28,975 bases of DNA, from NCBI GenBank assembly GCA_010093705.1, contig MU006094.1, positions 1,463,550-1,492,524 on the forward strand. The letters run 5' to 3'. Shown here piece by piece: positions 6,461 to 28,975 of this stretch. The translations under genes were made by a program, and so were the position numbers. The notes under the pieces were generated by a model. The model was not told the origin of the DNA. It ran no database searches and was given only the letters and a program-made list of their open reading frames with translations. The stretch is from Patellaria atrata CBS 101060 (taxonomy: Eukaryota). The first letter of the stretch is position 1; each line of letters begins with the position of its first letter.

Positions 6461-7015
6461 ATTGCTAGATATGTGATTAACGGTAGCTTTACTATTCGTA
6501 TATGCGTATTTGGAAAGTTAAGGAGTTGATGAATATGGAAAAGATTGTTAGATGTACCATTAGATGATTGTGGTCTGTATTGATGGTTTAGTCTAACCTA
6601 TTTAGAGTTAGGGGTAGAACTTTATCGTTCAGTGGCATTACTTTAGCAAGCTTTGCCTTAAGCAAGTCTAGCTAGAACTTACATTGATTCAACACTGTAA
6701 TCATCAATCAATAACATGATTTTTGATTGCCTAAATCATCCACTGTATAAGATGTCTAAAGGCGGAGACGGGAGAGATTCCGAATGCTTGCTTTCTATTT
6801 AACCTCCAAGGCTTGTTATATACTGCGCGTCGCCGATACCTTTCGTTTTCATCAACTTAATCGCTTGGATAAAATACTGGTAAAACCACTACTTACGCCT
6901 CACCACTCATCCCTTTGAAAATGGGCGCTCTGCCACAGCCGTGATCTATTTTGCCCACCATGCCCTCGAATCCGACTTCCCCTCCATCGATAGAGGGATC
7001 AGCACCAGTTATACT

Positions 7016-9024
7016 ATGCGCTTGTCCACGCTAAACTGCAGCTGGAGAACTTCTGCTCTCCTCTTCGCCGGCTTCTGTTTACAATCCACATCAGTTTTGG
7101 CGAATTCAGATGTGGAAAGAATAGGACTGTTTGAGTATGAGAAATCACATCTTTCACTAAGAGCGCTAGAGGATACCCTTTACGGGTCTGATAGGGGATT
7201 CCTTCAATTTGAAGACGTTGACAGCAAATTCAAACTACGGCGAAAACAAGCAGGCTGTAAAGTCTATCCCGGAGACCCCGAGTGGCCGAGTGAAGAGACT
7301 TGGGAGAGCTTCAAGAATTCCGTGGACGGAAATTTGATCAAAACCGTACCAAGGGCTGCGGTATGCTATCCGGGACCAGATTATGACGAACAGAAGTGTA
7401 CCACGGTCACAGCAACCTGGACAGACTCGTATGCACAATCCGCAAACCCAGTAGAAGTTCTCTCCCCAGCTTTCCAAGGATTAACATGCCAACCGCCGAC
7501 CTTGTTTCCCAACGGAAATTGCACCCTAGGGGGTTATCCTGTTTATGTCGTGGACGCGAGGAAGGTATCGCAGATTCAACTAGCAGTACGCTTTGCGAGA
7601 GATAATGGAATTCGACTCGTCATCAAGAACACCGGACACGATTTCCTAGGCAAATCACTCGGTGCAGGCGCCCTTAGTATCTGGACTCACAATCTGAAAG
7701 GTATTACGTTCATATCGGATTATCAAGATGACAGTTCGGATTACCAAGGTCCAGCATTCAAGGTTGGCGCCGGCGTTCAGGGCTACGAGCTATACAAGGC
7801 TGCCGAGGAGCAGAATCTCGTCGTGGTTGCGGGAGAGGGAGAAGTAAGTTGATTCATGATTTGCACATTTTCTACACCCTGTGTCAATGATAACCGCCAT
7901 TGGGTATATTACTGACCGTCTAACCGATACAGACTGTTGGTGTAATGGGCGGATACATTCAAGGGGGAGGTCATTCTCCCCTTAGCTCCATATTAGGTAT
8001 TGCAGCAGACCATGTTCTGGAGATTCAAGTTGTCACACCAGATGGTCAATTCCTTACTGTGAACTCCAAAGCGTATTCGGACCTGTTCTGGGCACTGAGA
8101 GGGGGCGGCGGCTCTACATTTGGCGTTGTAACGTCCGTGACTGTCAAGGCCCACAAGAATGTCCCGGTTACTGTTGGAACATTTCAATTCAGTGCTGCAG
8201 AAACAGGTCTCTCAACCTTCTGGTCTGGTGTCCGGGCTTATTTCGATACCTTTATCCCTTACTCAAATGCTGGGGTATACACCTATTTCTGGATATTTCC
8301 TCCTGCTATTACGGGTAACTTTCTTTTCAGCATGCAACCATTCTTTCTTCCGAACAAAACACTTTCTGAGACAGAATCGTTACTGGAACCCTTCTTGATA
8401 AAACTCACTTCTCTTGGTATCTCAGTTACTCCAAACCTCACCCACTACAACACTTTCTACCCTGCCTGGCGCAATGGTTTTCCTCTTGAACGTGTTGCAA
8501 CACCTACTTCAGCCACGGGCTCTCGTCTGTTTCCTCGAACGAATTGGGAAAGCGAAAATAAGCTTGATGCAACCTTCGACGCGATCAAAGCCGCCTCGGA
8601 CGCTGGGAATCTCCTAATCGCCTTCAACATCGCCCCAAGAGCGCAACGCGGGGGAAGTCCCAATAACGCTGTCAATCCTGCTTGGCGCAAAGCTGTGATG
8701 CACGCTATTTCCGGCGCATCATGGGCCCTCGATGCAACACCGGCGGAGGTGTTAAAGGTCAGGGAGACTTTTCAGGCTGGAGTGATGCAGAAATGGAGAG
8801 ATGTATCTCCCGGTGCGGGTGCCTATTTAGGTGAAGCGGACATTTTGGAGCCTAGTTGGCAACAGGCTTTTTACGGGAGCAATTACCAGCGATTGAAAGG
8901 TATTAAGGAGAAGTATGACCCTCAGAACGTTTTTTGGGCACCTACCGCAGTCGGTAGCGAAAAGTTCAAAGTTATCACGGAGGATGGGCTTCCAGGTCAG
9001 AACGGAAAGTTGTGTGAGGCATAA
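7016..9024 (+). CDS. Secreted FAD-linked oxidoreductase (FAD_binding_4 + BBE domain), 639 aa; exons 7016-7843, 7933-9024
   Basis: Signal-peptide-like N-terminus; KNTGHDFLGKS (His for covalent FAD), GGYIQGGGHSPLS, LFWALRGGGGSTFGVV, and the C-terminal FYGSNYQRLKGIKEKYDP BBE motif. Intron 7844-7932 (GTAAGT..ACTGAC..CAG) joins the two ORFs in frame. Confidence 0.93.
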
Positions 9025-19110: not shown

Positions 19111-20706
19111 TCAAGGTCTCCACCCTCCCGTCCTGGTTCGAAATAAGCCCTCAGGATCCACGTTCATGGCAACAGACCTAGCCAGAGCCCTATTTTCAGG
19201 CTTCAGGCGCCCAAAGTAGTCCTGGCGGTAGAATCCATAGTTCATGAAAAGCGGTAGGTACGCTTGCGGTAGGGTGCCGTCGGCCTGCCAGGCAAGGACC
19301 CTGTTGCGGACCCCCGTGTAAGTTGCTTCTAAAGTGTCAGCCATCCGGTTATACTCTGTCTGTGGAATGAAGCTGTAGTTCATTTCGATAATGATGCGAT
19401 CCACTGAGTCGTCGGCCTCAATTAGGTCCGGTCCTCGCGCCTTTGCCTGCTGGGCGATGCGTCTTGGAAATGGCTGTTATATAAGAGGAGAAATCAGTAA
19501 CCTCTCGAGTCATAATATTAGAACAGGAGACTAGATGCTCACCTGCCAGGCGATGGATGCTACGATCCCTGGAACGAGCAATGCAGTACTCGAGACATTA
19601 CGCCAGTGCGCATGAAGAGATTCCATAACCTTCACACTGTTAGCGGCCGAAGGAATCGGAACTGTCTCGGTCCCAATATCCACTACGGAGCCCCTGACGA
19701 CAACCCAATTGCTGAAGGCCATAAGATCAGCATATGTACGCCTCCTGAATGTGTTTAGCAAGGGACGAGGCCCGACATCAGTGAAGTTATTGAAGATTCC
19801 ATCTGGGACGACTGGCCCGTCGTAAAACAGAAAGATGATCCAAGAGTCGACTAAGTTCAAATTGGCTCGCTCTGCAGTCACGATAACAGCTGCCTTGTCG
19901 TCATCGTTGTACTCGGTAAAGTCCCGTACGGCCTTTAGTAACTTGGATGCCACGGCGGGCGTGTGTTGAAAGATTAGGTTTCCACCGTATACATCACCCT
20001 GGCGGCGAGCCTGTAGCCGGTAGTTGGTCACGATACCGAAGTTGTTTCCTCCGCCCCTGAGCGCCTTGAACAGATCCGGATGCGTCGAGGCGGACACATG
20101 AGCAATGGTCCCATTCGCGAGCACGAGCTCGTACTCTAACACCGATGACGCTGCCCAGCCATACTGAGCTGACATGTACGAGAGCCCACCGCCTAGCACC
20201 AAACCGCCCACACCAGTATTGCCGATCCGACCACCGACAAAAGTCCAGCCACTACCCTGCAATTTTGCTGCTATGCCATCCAGTCGGTTACCCGGGCCAA
20301 CGTCGACAATTCCGGTGGCCCGATCTAGGTCAGCCTGATCGAGATGGTCCGTTGATATGAGGGGACCACCTTCGACACTTGAGAAGTAGTTGTTAGGATT
20401 ATGTCCGCCCGACTTGACGGCAAAGTGCTCCGTACTGTTGTTGAGTACCTTGACGATAGTTGCAACCTCGGCCGCGGAGTTAGGGAAAATGATGCATGAC
20501 GGCTTGAGCGCGCTGCATGATGTTGACCAATATTGAGTCTGCTCTATAATGTAAGCTGGGTGTAAAGGACGAGTGACGTTGATGTTTCCCAGGGCCTCGA
20601 TGGTTGCGCATGTGTCAGCATACGCCAGCCTGGCAACCCCAATGGCTGAGACTATAATTAATCGAAGTGACAACATCGTGGGCCTTAACGGTCGGTATGA
20701 GAGCAT
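19111..20706 (-). CDS. Secreted FAD-binding (FAD_binding_4, BBE-like) oxidoreductase, ~500 aa; exons 20706 (or 20676)-19543, 19473-19111
   Basis: Signal peptide; FAVKSGGHNPN, GGRIGNTGVGGLVLGGG and DLFKALRGGGNNFGIVT motifs; C-terminal VDPEGLFRTRTGGW. Intron 19542-19474 (GTGAGC..ACTGAT..CAG) joins the two ORFs in frame. Confidence 0.92.
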
Positions 20707-22779
20707 GAGAGGGTCCTCCTAGACGTGCGAAGCTTATAGTCGGATAGCAGTTGGCAACGTGCAGGTTCACACCGGTTTATATAGACTTCAGCCTTCTTAT
20801 CTCATTTTTAACTCACTCAATATCTCTTGGCGGCTAACCGAATAGTGCGATAGGTATACTATCCATCTGTCACAGGATCGAGACGAAAAAAACAGCCAAG
20901 AGGGCATTGAGTCATGTCATATTAAGTTAAATCCTACTCGAAGGGAAAGAGTGAAAGAGCAAGCGAATTTCAACCTTAATTCTCGCCTGGAAATGCAGGT
21001 TTTCGGGAAATGTTACTGAAGAATCAAGACTAAGTGACAGAAGCATGTGTATAATACTAGTACCTACCTCTACTATACCCAGATTTGTCCTGAAGGTTCC
21101 AAAAGAGGGTGTCAAGACTTTAAAGCATGACGCCTAGCATCCCGTATCTGCATGCAGGACTCCCGGGCCTTTGGTTAGAAATAGTAGTACCTAGTTGAAA
21201 TGAACCTTCAACCTTGTGACCGGGTGAACGTCTTATATTTCCTCCACACGTATCCCCACCTATACAACAATTCGTTTCAGCGCCATTCCAACCCTACTAC
21301 GGGTTTGCTGGATAAGAGTTACAGAGGTAGACTCTTGCTCATCTAGCGCCAGCTGCGATGGAACTTGTTTGACGAAACTGACGTTCGGGGTGTGGAGATT
21401 TCCGCCTAAAAGTAGTCCAACACTAGGACTAGAATTATTGACAAGCAACATTGGATTAGAACATTTTTGCCGCGTGCCTGGCTCTGCCTAGTGTGATTTT
21501 TCGTTCCCCAGATCCGAGTCCAGGGATAACTTGACGGCATTCACCTCCACCTTATTTCTCCTTATTTCTTCCCACGTTTTCATGTGCTGGCGACGCCAAT
21601 CGGCCGGACCCGAGGACGTCGCCTAACACGGATAAATGATTTAGCGGCAAGAGTACATCATCTTGCAGCTTTTCTATCGATTCAAGGGTTTGCGTTATCA
21701 AAGCACTTTATAGCCTAATAATGAACAAAATGGACTTGAGAAACTGAATCGACGATCAAAACTCTTCAGAGGATGGGATATAGGCACGAGGACGACTCAG
21801 TACTGTACTTTACAACGTGAATGCAAATCTACTAGATCAAAACTCCGTGCAAAGGTACGTGTTGATCGCAACTTTTGCAAATACGAGACATGGATATATC
21901 GAGATACAAGAAAGAAAGAACTTACAGTATAAAATGAGATTGAAGGTTTGATGCGGATCTTAGGTACGGATGATCCCGCTACTGTAAAACTTAAAACTAC
22001 CTTACCTTGTTCGCAAACCCCCCGCCAGCTCCTTCCCGTTCCCTAGTTCCACCAGCACTTTTCTGTTCGTCTATTTATATCAAAACAACTGGTCAAGATA
22101 AGCTAATACAACTGCATTCAACTGTCCATGCAATGACATCTGAAAGGATGGTACTGCACCAGTATCACAGACGGTTCTGAACAACTCCGTCCCAAATAAG
22201 TTGCTGTAGAAATCGTCCTAGGCCGTTCCACGCCAGATAATAGTGAGGTTGGTCGACCGTCTTTCGCTCTGGAATATCAAGCGGGGCGGAAAGAAGTTGC
22301 GGAGCGGAAGGCAGAGGCTTAGATAGGTTGTTCACATTTCGCCCACACAGCCGATAGTTCTACTTCGGTTGAAGAACAGATCTCGCGAGATGTATGCATT
22401 CGTAAAGATCTTTCTAAAGGCTTCTCTTAAAAGAAAGAGAAACTGCAAGGACGCTTTTTGAGCGCGGTGCAAACTCCTTTTTCTGCTCAAGTGAGTAGAC
22501 CTAATAGGGAGAAGCATGAGCCAGAGTTTTCGGGTAGATTCAAACTGCGATTAGAATTAGAGGGCTTCCCAACCATGATTTGAATAGCGAAAATGCTTTT
22601 ATGACGTTTCACAATCAAGAGGACATTCTGATTTTGGTCTCGATGATACTACCTTTTGGCAGAATGCTAGACTCGGTAGTTCAAGGCGGTGAGCTAGGTC
22701 GAAATGAGATTTTTTTCGAAAAACCAAAAACAAAACATTTTTCTTCACGACAACTCAGAGAAACAAAACGGTGCTCAAC

Positions 22780-24809
22780 ATGTCAAAATCAGGCAAAGTG
22801 TGCCTTGCCTACTCGGGCGGACTCGATACGTCGTGTATCCTGAAATGGCTTCTTGACCAAGGGTACGAAGTCGTTTGCTTTCTGGCCGATGTTGGACAGG
22901 TGAGTCAACTTTGCGGCACAAGGGTGCGTAGAAATTCATGAGATATATCTAGTATTGGCGACATGACGATAGCCTTATGGGCAAGATAAGATATTAATAC
23001 GGACATACTCTTCGAAATCTAGAGTATAATCGGATATAATCTTAGCTTGCCCGTACATCCATTGTTGTGTCTCTAGTACTACGCATTCTCATAAATTTCT
23101 ACAATTCTGATGTAACATAAGCTGCAATGCTCGATTCGAGATGCTGATTGCCTGATCTGTAGGAGGAAGATTGGGATCAAGTTCGTGCAAAAGCAAAAAA
23201 GCTAGGAGCAGCCAAGATGGAGATCAAGGATCTTCGCCGCGAGTTTGTAGAGCAGACCTGCTTCCGCGCAATCCAGTGCAACGCACAATATGAGGGTCGT
23301 TACTTGCTTGGTATGAAACTCGTCTAGCAAAATATGATCTCAATTCTATTAACACCAATACAGGTACAAGCCTTGCACGTCCTATCATTGCTCGAGCACA
23401 GATGAAGTTTGCTGCCGAGGAGGGTTGTGAGTTTTCTGTTATACCAATCTACTGCAAGGCTTTTACTAATCCCAAATAGGCCAATATGTCAGTCATGGAT
23501 GTACAGTAAGTACTACTAGTTCTCAACCAGCCTACGAAAACTGGGAACAACTGAATCTGCAATCAATATTGCAGCATGCGATAGCACTCATGGCTCCAAC
23601 AACTGACAGGACTTAGGGGAAAGGCAATGATCAAGTCCGTTTCGAGTTAGCATTCCTCGCGATTGATCCCAAGATTAAGATCATAGCTCCCTGGCGACTA
23701 CCCGAATTCTTTGAGAAATTTGAAGGTAGACAGGCGCTACTAGACTATGCTGAGCACTCGGGCATTCCAGTGACATCAACGAAGGCCAAGCCATACAGCA
23801 TGGATGATAACATTGCCCACTGCAGCTATGAGAGCGGGCAGCTAGAAGATCCATCCTTACCTCCTCCGGATGGCATGTGGACTCGGTGAGTGCTCAACGC
23901 TAATGATCTAATGCACTGGTTATTAACTATCATAAGCACCAATAACCCAGTCACTGCACCATCTACGCCCCAGGAGGTTACTATTCGTTTTGAGAAGGGC
24001 ATTCCAGTCAAGGTGAGCTCTGAAGGCAAGGAATGGACGGACAGCCTTGAGCTCTTCATTGCTCTCAATGAGCTGGGAAAAGTCCACGGCATAGGAAGAA
24101 TTGATATCGTTGAGGTAGAGTGACTTACATTTTCTATTCCGGCAACGCTAAATATAGTAGAATCGTTTTATCGGAATCAAATCGCGAGGCTGCTATGACT
24201 CACCGGCTATGACAATTGTAAGTTGAGTCAGTGCTCGTGCGAGTCAGTAAATTAATGTCTTTATAGCTACAAGCCGCACATCTGGACATTGAAGGCCTTG
24301 TCATGGACGGAAAGGTACGGTCTCTCCGCGACCAGTTCGTGACACACACCTGGTCGGAAATCATTTACAACGGACTGTCAGTTCTCTCTACTAAATTCGT
24401 CGGCTCTGTTACTAATAGACGTGACAGCTACTTCTCACCTGAAAGAGAGTTCGTGGAGAACAGTCTTCTGTTCTCTCAGAGGCGGGTTGTAAGTCTTGCC
24501 TTCCACGTCCACAAGTCTTCAACTCTAACGCCTATCATAGAACGGCGAGGTCCGGCTTCAACTGTACCGCGGCAACGTTTGGATCACAGGTCGTTCATCC
24601 GAGACTGAAAAGATGTATTCTGAAGAGGAGTCATCCATGGATAGCCTCGTTGATTTCAGCCCTGTTGACACTAGTATGCTACAGTCTATCTCCTTGTCGC
24701 GTGCAGTTCTAACTATCGTATAGCCGGGTTCATCAGCATAAATGCTATCCGTCTCAAGAAGTTTGGCGTACAGAAGCAGGAGGAAGGTCATAGCCTTGCA
24801 AATGCGTAA
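22780..24809 (+). CDS. ARG1: Argininosuccinate synthase, 416 aa, 11 exons: 22780-22899, 23163-23310, 23364-23426, 23480-23505, 23617-23885, 23937-24114, 24161-24217, 24267-24376, 24428-24488, 24541-24673, 24724-24809
   Basis: [58 protein letters not shown] and YFSPERE signature motifs. Ten GT-AG introns give a 1251-nt open frame. Confidence 0.97.
22911..23127 (+). ncRNA. Long nested imperfect RNA hairpin filling ARG1 intron 1 (function unknown)
   Basis: Nested helices: 22911-17/23121-27, 22928-43/23087-102, 22950-70/23061-81, 22976-92/23039-55, 23005-11/23021-27. About 65 pairs including 7 G-U, with 3 mismatches. Confidence 0.75.
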
Positions 24810-25384: not shown

Positions 25385-25942
25385 TGTTACAACGGGAGTC
25401 TATACTTATCGAGACAGAACTAGATAAGTCTAGAAACGCGCCTGGTTTCTCACTTAGCGTGGTCAACCACAAAGGTAGGTTTGGCGAAGTGATAGGATAC
25501 GTATAACAAAGGCACTTCAAGTTGTCGACACAACTTGCTGACTCCTTGACTTCGGGTAACGCTCACAATGAGACAGGACGTACTGTATGGAAGCAGCGTG
25601 ACAAGTGAAGTCAAGTTCAAAACCGTAACATCCAAATCTATAGGTAAGATTGATGGTAAGAATAACTACGAAGAATCTAAATACATGAGGGAAAGACCGT
25701 CCTTAAATATTCCTATCCTCCATAGTCAATTTGGTGGTGCTCCCACTGCTCCCGTGCTCCCACCTAGGGATCACTGGGAGCATGGGATCGCGTAGTGCTC
25801 CCACTGCTCCTGTGCTCCCACCTAGGGATCACTGGGAGCATGGGATCACGTCACGTGATCTCCGTGCTCGTTGTTCCGTTCCGACGTCCTCGTGCTACCA
25901 TTCCGCTGGTGATGCACTCTCTGTCGTCCTGTGGCCGTAACA
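25385..25942 (-). mobile_element. Probable LTR of an LTR retrotransposon (558 bp, solo-like, reverse orientation)
   Basis: Termini TGTTAC...GTAACA (TG..CA with a 6-bp inverted repeat). On the minus strand, GC-rich tandem repeats come first, then TATTTAAGG (25709-25701), then a pyrimidine-rich stretch, which resembles U3-R-U5 order. No matching TSD and no second LTR in the window. Confidence 0.6.
25737..25851. repeat. Two near-identical tandem 58-bp units, each containing a hairpin
   Basis: Units start at 25737 and 25795 (GTGCTCCCACTGCTCC[C/T]GTGCTCCCACCTAGGGATCACTGGGAGCATGGGATC[G/A]CGT). In each, CC[C/T]GTGCTCCCA can pair with TGGGAGCATGGG. Confidence 0.95.
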
Positions 25943-25989
25943 CTGGTATCCAGCCATCTGATATCCAGCCACCTTGCGTGACCCTCAAT

Positions 25990-27347
25990 TTCACCAATAT
26001 TCAAGACGTATGGTTACAAGATTATAAGCTAAAGGAGCACAACGTCTCTTTTGCTTCTTCCCCAACCTGTTGGACGAATAATCACCTTGGAATGGAGTGG
26101 TTAACCAACGTTTTTGAACCTCAGACGAAAGCAAAGGCTAGACAGGCTCGTGATTGGAGGTTACTGTTGGTTGATGGCCACGGATCACACCTAACACTTC
26201 CCTTTGTTGACTATTGTATCAAGCATCGGATTATACTTGCAAACTTTCCCCCTCATAGTACCCATAAGCTCCAACCTCTTGACGTGTCTCTCCTCTCACC
26301 ACTATCCACGTACTATAGGCAAGAGCTAGATAAGCTGAAGAGTCATAGTGAGGGTAGATATACTGTTACAAAGAGAGATTTTATACGTCTATTCCTCCCC
26401 GCCTTTGAAAAAGCCTTTGTTCCAAAGAATATCCTAAGTGGATTTGCAAAAACAGGTATACAACCATTCAATCCAACGGCTATACTCAAGATATTTGAAG
26501 AGGTGGATGTTCCAGCTGGTCCAGTTGATCAAGAATTATCATCAGACGAATCAGAGATAAACACAAGTGATTGGAGGACTATAAAGAGGAGGTTAAAGGA
26601 GGAATTTGGCCCTACCCCTGACTTAAAAACTCAAAAGCTGAGCGACACCTTATTACTCGCTATCAACGAGAACCAGTCACTTAAACACCGTATAAAGGGG
26701 CTAGAAGAGACTTTAGATCTTGAAAAACAGAAACGTAAGCGTGGTAAACCTATCTTTAAAACTGCTGGCATGAAACTAAATTCAAAATCAACTTTTTGGA
26801 CACCTGCTAAAGTTAGCCGTGCTCTAGACGCAATACGTAGACAAGAAACTGCCTCAAAAGCTGAAGATAAGGTAAGAAAAGAGGTTACTAAGGCAGAGAA
26901 ACAGAAAGAACTGGATGAAAGGCGGCGTTTACAGGCCCAAGACAAGGCAGACAGGCAGGCTAAAGCAGCAGCAGAAAGAGAACGCTTTAGCGCGTTTAGC
27001 TAAACAGCAGCTTAATACTGAGATCAAGGCTTCAAGAGTACGAAAACGAGCACTTATTAGAGCAATTACAACTACTCAAAAGCCTCAAGTTGTTGCTATT
27101 GATGCCCCTCAAGGGGGGGGGGGGGTTGGTGAGGCCTCAACACGGCCTCAACGCTCACGGCGGCCTCCACAACGTTTTGAGATATCTGAAAATTAGTTAG
27201 ATAGGTTCAACAGCATCAAGTTACTACACCATCTAAATCTCCAGCAGCTAGCACGTATATTGAGATAATAGCATTAAAAGATAGATGGGGTCAAATTGTC
27301 CAGACGTCCGTGCAACAGCCGAATCGTGCACGAGCCCGAACCTACGT
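25990..27347 (+). mobile_element. 5'-truncated pogo/Fot1-family (Tc1/mariner superfamily) DNA transposon; partial DDE_1 transposase plus probable right terminus
   Basis: WTNNHLGMEWL..VFEP, RLLLVDGHGSH and FPPHSTHKLQPLD motifs; a charged C-terminus with a frameshift near 26980 that ends RPQRSRRPPQRF. The probable right TIR has two CGTGCA..GCCGAA-like repeats and ends ACGT at 27347. The N-terminal HTH, first catalytic D and left TIR are absent. Confidence 0.88.
27113..27125 (+). repeat. G13 homopolymer in the transposase 3' region
   Basis: 13 consecutive G residues. Confidence 0.9.
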
Positions 27348-27792
27348 CTAAAAGCGGCTACGGACTATCTGTTTTTGGTGGCTACCGCTAAAGCCCTCAT
27401 GTCCGTTCACGGCAATGTTTCAACACCTCTTGCGATTGTATTCTTTTCACTACGCATCTATCGCGTCTTTCGTTGGCACGCTACTCGCTGATACTGTGCC
27501 CTTACCAAGGGAAAAAAATGGCTGGTGGAGCGGTGGGGGTGTCTATCTAATGGACGATGGTGAATGCCCTTTTATATTTCGTCTGTCTTCTCCATGCAAG
27601 TAGATGGCGAGCCTGCGCCACGTCGTAGCCTCGTGGGTAGCGCGTTGAATCACTGCTATATAATCTTCCCATCATTTGTCCTTCGAAGTCTGCTTCCCTC
27701 CTGTCGACGTTCGACTTATAGACCTAGGACTGATATGCCGAACGAATCACACGAGTAACACTTACCGGGAGGTCGCTCGCGAATTTAGTTTT

Positions 27793-28975
27793 ATGGCTCT
27801 CATACGCCTCTTGCACCGCAAGCCCGACGGAGAGATCGTCTTTCGCGAACCCACCGGCGGCGATGTCCCTTCCTACACAATACTCTCCCATACCTGGGGA
27901 AAAGAGGAGGTCAGCTTTCAAGACATGGAAGCCGGCACGGCTAGGAGCAAGGCTGGCTGGAGGAAGATAGAGTTCTGCGCTAAGCAGGCTACAGCAGACG
28001 GACTACAATATTTCTGGATAGATACTTGTTGTATCGATAAAAAGAACGCCGTAGAGCTTTCAGCGGCTATCAATTCGATGTTTCGGTGGTATCAGAAGGC
28101 AGTGCGGTGCTACGTCTACCTTTCAGATGTCTCTATTCACGGTGAAGGTCAGGACGGACAGTCTAGCTCTACATGGGAAGCCGCATTTAGGAAGAGTCGA
28201 TGGTTCACTCGGGGTTGGACGCTTCAAGAGCTTATTGCGCCGGCACAAGTCGACTTCTTTAGCTCCGGGGGCAATCGACTCGGGAATAAGCTATCGTTAG
28301 AACAAATGGTCTACGATATTACCGGTATCAATAGAAATGCTCTCAGTGGTGATCCGTTGCCCACCTTCACTATTCCTGAGCGGATGTCTTGGGCAGAGCG
28401 CCGCCAAACCACTATCGAAGAAGATGAGATCTACTCGCTCCTTGGAATCTTCAATGTCTCATTACCCCTTATCTATGGCGAGGGAAGAGAAAATGCATCT
28501 AGACGGCTTCGAGAAGAGATAGACAAGGTCAATAAAGGTTAATTTAACTTCTACTAAAGGGAGACCGAATAGTGCTCACGAAACTAGGCGCTAACTTCGA
28601 ACGATTTTCTATCGGCCTTAACCTCTCGACCCTACCTCACCATGTTCAATTTGTTGCAAGGTCGAAGGAGCTTACGGAAATGCACCGGATGCTCCACGGC
28701 CACAGCACTCGATCTATTGTTATCCTTCATGGTCTTGGAGGGATCGGAAAGACTCAACTAAGTCTCGCCTACGCTATGCGACACGAAGAAAAGTTCAGTG
28801 CAATATTCTGGTTAAATGCGAATGACGAGGGTTCTCTCAAGCTTAGCTTTCGAGCCATCGCTCAGCAGATCCTAAAATATCATCCTTCGACCAGTCTACT
28901 TGCTAGTATAGACTTGGACGACCTCGACCAAGTAGGGCATGCGGTCAAGGCCTGGCTCGATCTCCAGAAGAATAC
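27793..28975 (+). CDS. Fungal NLR-like protein: HET domain + NB-ARC NTPase, 3' partial; exons 27793-28537, 28588->28975
   Basis: HET motifs YTILSHTWG, YFWIDTCCIDK, AINSMFRWY and SRWFTRGWTLQELIAP. After intron 28538-28587 the frame continues FVARSKEL..ILHGLGGIGKTQL (Walker A, 28731-28754) and AIFWLNA, and stays open to the window end. Confidence 0.92.

Follow-up and report, generated by a model that had tools for sequence, protein, structure and literature searches.

A probable palindromic insertion in the first ARG1 intron of Patellaria atrata

The first intron of the argininosuccinate synthase gene (ARG1) of Patellaria atrata CBS 101060 carries a 217-nt imperfect palindrome that is predicted to fold into a single long hairpin. 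Since this hairpin is missing from the 53- and 50-nt introns found at the same position in two relatives, sequence comparison identifies it as a presumptive lineage-specific insertion into an older, normally short intron. It is probable that this palindromic insert is tolerated through its own folding and is not a conserved regulator of ARG1. The intron 1 hairpin does not reveal a new class of regulatory RNA. It offers a small, clean illustration of a fungus with short introns coping with an intron expanded four-fold, self-complementary DNA leaving the effective length unchanged, and is one more case to set beside symmetrical introns, introner-like elements and zipper stems.

The ARG1 gene and the predicted fold of its first intron

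The DNA analysed is a stretch of 28,975 nucleotides (about 29 kb) of contig MU006094.1, called the window here. The spliced model of ARG1 rebuilt from this sequence has 11 exons and 10 introns at 22780–24809 on the forward strand and encodes 416 amino acids. Its full product is letter-identical to the NCBI protein "argininosuccinate synthase [Patellaria atrata CBS 101060]" (P0001), and the public annotation therefore has the same ten introns. The peptide encoded by exon 5 is 100% identical to this protein and matches Pfam families PF00764 and PF20979. The introns are, in order, 263, 53, 53, 111, 51, 46, 49, 51, 52 and 50 nt long. The initial annotation had singled out intron 1 as a length outlier, and this is borne out by the gene model: of the nine remaining introns, eight measure between 46 and 53 nt. 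Retention of intron 1 leads to an in-frame stop after 13 codons. Among the papers found on Patellaria atrata and introns, none, judged by titles and the beginnings of abstracts, concerns ARG1 or its first intron.

The features of the gene and of intron 1 are as follows; names beginning with L denote related loci, introduced in the next section.

22780..24809, forward strand: argininosuccinate synthase gene (ARG1 orthologue); spliced model identical to P0001, Pfam PF00764 and PF20979
22780..22899, forward strand: exon 1, 40 codons, ending in phase 0; 92% amino acid identity to exon 1 of L022
22900..23162, forward strand: intron 1, 263 nt, GTGAGT...TAG; position common to L022, L023, L025 and L027
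22901..22906, forward strand: 5' half of the basal helix (6 bp), covering donor positions +2 to +7; pairs with 23133–23138 in the minimum free energy (MFE) and centroid structures
22911..23127, forward strand: 217-nt imperfect palindrome, with left arm 22911–23011, loop 23012–23020 and right arm 23021–23127
22928..23102, forward strand: best-preserved palindromic core, 175 nt, from the inverted self-match of the sequence
23133..23138, forward strand: 3' half of the basal helix in the MFE and centroid structures
23144..23148, forward strand: candidate branch-point motif CTGAT, from sequence; its A lies 15 nt before the 3' splice site
23163..23310, forward strand: exon 2, from the spliced gene model

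The fungal branch-point consensus is CTRAY. By this consensus, we take the CTGAT at 23144–23148 to be the candidate branch point of intron 1; a second CTGAT is present at 23152–23156.

Folding with ViennaRNA gives intron 1 an MFE of −88.7 kcal/mol on the forward strand, against a mean of −59.7 (sd 4.6) for shuffled sequences (z −6.35), and −74.5 kcal/mol on the reverse strand (z −4.06), with none of 200 shuffles as stable in either case. This comparison of both strands with shuffled controls had been proposed along with the original description, and as a predicted structure the hairpin is genuine and well outside what chance would give. A 240-nt sliding fold across the window places the intron 1 region as the top forward-strand outlier (residual z −4.15). 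The other nine ARG1 introns have z values from −1.49 to +1.33, that is, no comparable structure.

All five nested helices that had been named recur at the same positions in the MFE structure, in which the main hairpin (22911–23127) comprises 79 pairs, including 10 G-U pairs. The terminal arms of the core, 16 nt each, are 94% complementary, with TA dinucleotides just within both ends. Subtracting the hairpin leaves 46 nt, a normal intron size for this gene as had been claimed, made up of the 11 nt that precede the hairpin and the 35 nt that follow it. The donor was also said to be wholly unpaired, and this does not hold: 22901–22906 pairs with 23133–23138 in both the MFE and the centroid structures. 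In L022 and L027, the MFE structure of the short intron consists of an equivalent basal helix, and two changes in P. atrata retain the pairs as wobbles. The short introns fold no better than shuffles (z about −0.9), and the basal helix is treated as a lead only.

Orthologous introns and divergence of the arms

Relatives were sought by scanning metagenome contigs with P0001, which yielded 28 loci, and P0001 was compared with these by tblastn. L022, L023 and L025 are identical over the 131-nt stretch compared and were counted as one organism; L027 represents a second. In both, an intron lies exactly after residue 40, at the same codon boundary as intron 1 of P. atrata, and measures 53 nt in the first organism and 50 nt in the second. 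Six fungal loci (L014, L015, L018, L019, L020 and L028) align without a break from residue 9, 12 or 13 to residue 86 and hence lack this intron. The comparison of intron 1 covers these loci; the remaining 18 are bacterial-like or distant, lack a 5' end or resemble spliced transcripts.

The hairpin was not found in the orthologous intron 1 of either relative. The conserved pairing for which covariation analysis had been suggested is consequently missing from both relatives that have the intron. In the sequences around it, the exon 1 protein of L022 is 92% identical to that of P. atrata, 102 of 120 and 124 of 148 exon nucleotides are the same, and the first 10 bases of the intron are identical. 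The last 35 bases are colinear with the short intron of the relatives, 17 of the 35 being identical by hand count. The 11 + 35 nt that can be matched to L022 are exactly the pieces that flank the hairpin.

The age of the palindrome can be judged from its arms. In a full alignment of the left arm (22911–23011) with the reverse complement of the right arm (23021–23127), there are 72 matches, 11 transitions of the G-U type, 6 of the A-C type, 9 transversions and 12 gap columns. The arms are complementary at 72 of 98 aligned positions (about 73%) and differ at 26 of 98 (27%). Between P. atrata and L022, 73 of 178 third codon positions differ (41%). The lower divergence of the arms would make the palindrome younger than the split from L022, provided that it has evolved neutrally and began as a good inverted repeat.

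It is conceivable, at a very low probability, that a long, structured intron was the ancestral state and that the hairpin was lost by deletion in the relatives. Only two independent relatives have the intron, and their sequences are very alike, so that a single deletion in a shared ancestor would suffice. Given how similar their introns are, L022 and L027 may be each other's closest kin, and parsimony alone cannot then separate one insertion here from one ancestral deletion there. Against an ancestral hairpin stand the divergence of the arms, 27% as compared with 41% at third codon positions between the species, and the length of the relatives' introns, both of which (53 and 50 nt) fall within the 46–53-nt range of eight other ARG1 introns in P. 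atrata. Insertion in the P. atrata lineage is very probably the better reading.

A different possibility is that the hairpin is a selected structure of the sense-strand RNA that controls ARG1 splicing, for example through intron retention responsive to arginine or citrulline. The fold of the forward strand is 14 kcal/mol more stable than that of the reverse strand, there are ten G-U pairs within the MFE hairpin, and the premature stop 13 codons into the retained intron could allow splicing control to act as a switch. The case for constraint on the sense RNA had been made from a ratio of seven G-U to one A-C deviation. This ratio is right within the five helices chosen, and it is inflated because the helices were delimited by surviving pairing, while A-C mismatches tend to fall between helices, where they go uncounted. 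Once all arm positions are counted, the ratio is 11 to 6 (two-sided binomial p = 0.33) and the argument for constraint fails. The sense strand of the hairpin has nearly equal G+T (109) and A+C (108). Counts of G-U versus A-C that are restricted to hand-picked helices exaggerate the evidence for constraint at the RNA level. Transversions and gap columns are about as frequent as G-U-type changes, and the sequence looks like the decay of a once better palindrome rather than its upkeep. Repeat-induced point mutation (RIP) or strand-biased mutation behind a G-U excess was considered and dropped, there being no significant excess to account for.

Neither relative with the intron has the structure. 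Rfam 15 gave no match at the gathering score in the window and seven related loci, and the best E-value within 22700–23400 was 1.8. The hairpin is also a simple foldback, in which no junction or asymmetric internal loop looks like a ligand pocket. The suggestion of a splicing-control element in ARG1 is thereby left unsupported, the structure being absent from the only relatives with the intron and no Rfam family matching it, and we regard such an element as very improbable.

The weak Rfam matches that do occur (ceN89, MIR8562 and SNORD53, E 1.8–4.8) are far under their gathering scores. A snoRNA was rejected, since there is no Rfam support for one and a symmetric foldback is unlike the box C/D or H/ACA layout. 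The excised intron could in principle serve as a small-RNA precursor, either a milRNA or a hairpin siRNA, cut by Dicer from the imperfect stem of about 100 bp. The length and imperfection of the stem are as in known long-hairpin precursors. The match to a plant miRNA precursor model, whose gathering score is 211, reaches 16.5 bits and reflects hairpin shape only. The hairpin is not conserved in the relatives, and no further genomic copy or evident target was found at ≥80% identity, which leaves a precursor role improbable.

Probable origin of the palindrome and comparison with known elements

The dispersed copies that would mark a repeat family were sought in the contigs of two sequencing runs, the only ones listed as containing this DNA (265,941 and 236,822 contigs; 64.3 and 77.8 Mb), which were compared with 22600–24200 at ≥80% identity. 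Both runs come from one sample and one study, are probably DNA and may be the source of the window itself. The hairpin is crossed by one contig in each run, without a single difference. No second copy of 22911–23127 was found at ≥80% identity among the contigs of this one sample (64.3 and 77.8 Mb), a comparison sensitive enough to recover matches of 46 and 53 nt at about 83–85% identity elsewhere on 22600–24200. Nor was there another copy of the hairpin within the 29-kb window (blastn, word size 7) or across the 28 related loci. The check for a dispersed family, which had been put forward as a way to tell a mobile element from an ARG1-specific one, accordingly returned no copies at ≥80% identity in the sample contigs, the window or the 28 loci. 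Within this threshold, which copies as diverged as the arms (27%) would escape, there is no young repeat family. Neither an active MITE nor an introner family is indicated by these sequences, and membership in a repeat family is unproven.

Some features of a MITE or foldback element are present. The small insert has inverted arms that pair along their whole length (72 of 98 positions), as in a MITE. Multiple dispersed copies are lacking at 80% identity. No target-site duplication could be identified at 22911/23127, there being no direct repeat at 22910/23128. The TA at both ends of the core (22928–23102) is itself palindromic and part of the palindrome, and proves nothing. An insertion boundary at 22927/22928, suggested by a CACAAG hexamer that also occurs in L022, was considered and is less likely, as it would need 15 outer base pairs between old and new sequence.

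The palindrome is most likely a decayed foldback or MITE-like insertion or an inverted duplication. The earlier proposal of an introner- or MITE-derived insert survives in part: insertion into a pre-existing short intron agrees with the 53- and 50-nt introns of the relatives, while descent from a family is not shown, with no copies at ≥80% identity.

We infer both the origin of the insert and a mechanism by which it would be tolerated. In the lineage of this fungus, an old phase-0 intron of about 50 nt would have acquired some 217 nt of palindromic DNA in its loop region, either from a foldback or MITE-like element or by a one-off inverted duplication. Decay would since have brought the complementarity of the arms down to about 73%. 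In the pre-mRNA, the insert would pair with itself into one long hairpin and loop out the added length, so that the spacing between the donor and the branch region is kept about as in a 46-nt intron, with an effective intron of 11 + 35 nt. A spliceosome accustomed to introns of 46–53 nt could then still remove intron 1, in the manner of a zipper stem. An arginine-prototrophic fungus needs this removal, since retention truncates the protein.

In Rhytidhysteron rufulum and two other fungi, regular introns have taken up repetitive elements (PMC3609843); this is the closest described situation and gives the insertion scenario a precedent. As with known inverted-repeat insertions in introns, the ARG1 insert is a short non-coding segment inside an ordinary short spliceosomal intron and would be removed together with it. 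Unlike them, it has no demonstrable copy or target-site duplication, and is perhaps a unique inverted duplication.

Introner-like elements (ILEs) of the kind found in Dothideomycetes are long, structured and multi-copy (PMC3609843). Sister (stw)introns in Hypoxylaceae have terminal inverted repeats of 45–55 nt, no target-site duplications and decaying symmetry (PMC8469720). ARG1 intron 1 resembles both groups in being unusually long and strongly symmetrical inside, with a stable predicted hairpin, in the decay of symmetry with age and in having its key splice nucleotides outside the main stem. Those elements differ in being whole introns gained at new positions, with many near-identical copies. 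The ARG1 insert lies within an older common intron and is single-copy at ≥80% identity.

This bears on the idea that the whole of intron 1 is a degenerating ILE of the dothideomycete kind, inserted as a unit. The host is a dothideomycete by best protein match. ILEs exceed regular introns in length and have stable predicted structures (PMC3609843), and intron 1 likewise is longer than regular introns (263 versus 46–53 nt) with a stable predicted structure (z −6.35). Internal symmetry is reported for fungal ILEs and for the Hypoxylaceae sister introns (PMC8469720). An ILE would be a whole intron with its own splice signals at a new position, whereas the position of intron 1 is common to the relatives, where the intron is short, and the ends that bear its splice sites are orthologous to that short intron, so that the element has no splice sites of its own. 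ILEs also occur as many near-identical copies in unrelated genes; here, only the source contig covers 22911–23127 at ≥80% identity, and no near-identical copies were found in the sample contigs. Insertion of intron 1 as an ILE has only a slim chance of being right.

The tolerance of the insert through folding finds its nearest analogy in the zipper stems of Saccharomyces cerevisiae introns, which are poorly conserved between species and are defined by a total linker of 42–85 nt (PMC12350175). The ARG1 stem is placed as a yeast zipper stem is, starting at 22911, 11 nt past the first base of the intron, and ending at 23127, before both CTGAT motifs. Its linker falls short of the yeast range, measuring 11 + 19 = 30 nt to the putative branch point A at 23147 or 11 + 27 = 38 nt to that at 23155. 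The ARG1 structure thus differs from the yeast zipper stems both in its linker, about 30–38 nt as against 42–85, and in its stem, which at about 100 bp is far longer. The yeast limits may not be transferable to a fungus with complete introns of 46–53 nt.

There is a small chance that the insert has been co-opted, the hairpin being stacked on the older 6-bp helix between the donor and a box upstream of the branch point, and the two together either tuning ARG1 splicing or yielding intron-derived small RNAs. If so, this would be a young structured intronic RNA, specific to the lineage, that had only recently arisen from a palindromic insertion.

Other observations in ARG1 and the window

The intron content of ARG1 varies widely. 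P. atrata has 10 introns, intron 2 is missing from L022, and in L027 the breaks between the aligned segments (HSPs) point to further introns near residues 161 and 179. Five more distant loci (L014, L017, L018, L020 and L028) have an 8-nt micro-exon between two introns at residues 86–90, which reads CTTGCTTG, or CTTGCTCG in L028. The second longest ARG1 intron in P. atrata is intron 4 (23506–23616, between residues 119 and 120), at 111 nt; its counterpart in L022 (3479–4000) is 522 nt long with a GC-rich interior. Around this position, the alignments of six other loci are broken over about 200–580 nt, and short exons are possible within the gaps. Intron 4 has no Rfam match and no special fold in P. 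atrata (z −0.03).

The position of intron 2 (23311–23363) is old, being common to L014, L017, L018, L020 and L028. In both runs, its span is matched almost exactly (23313–23365) by a short contig of very high depth, with 9 differences in 53 nt. These contigs are 115 nt long at a depth of 3800 and 360 nt at a depth of 25000, whereas the contig of the gene itself has depths of 310 and 464, and their flanks are unrelated and AT-rich. The difference in depth ratio between the runs, 12-fold versus 54-fold, suggests that the contigs are organellar or other non-nuclear DNA. A 46-nt match to 22807–22852, in the region of the conserved ATP-binding motif of ARG1, occurs in a second contig of these runs, of lower depth (53 and 85) and with GC-rich flanks, which probably belongs to an argininosuccinate synthase gene from a different organism in the sample.

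An open frame at 25768–27003 on the forward strand encodes a DDE_1 domain (PF03184) of a pogo/Tc1-type transposase whose N-terminal DNA-binding part is missing. Terminal inverted repeats were not found around this frame, which is probably a truncated remnant of a DNA transposon, 1 kb downstream of ARG1. Its presence near the gene indicates that DNA transposons have been active in this genome. A link between the remnant and the ARG1 hairpin was considered and rejected, as the hairpin has no similarity elsewhere in the window (blastn, word size 7) and the terminal repeats of the element were not found.

The second strong hairpin-forming element of the window lies at 25700–25900, a region that folds at −89.4 kcal/mol (z −6.59). 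It includes two tandem 58-nt units at 25734–25849 that are 95% alike and rich in internal inverted repeats (TGCTCCCA / TGGGAGCA); comparison of these units with the ARG1 hairpin gave no sequence similarity. In further open frames at 6941–9024 (forward), 19531–20706 (reverse) and 27664–28542 (forward), FAD_binding_4/BBE oxidase domains occur twice, alongside a HET heterokaryon-incompatibility domain; such content is ordinary for a filamentous ascomycete.
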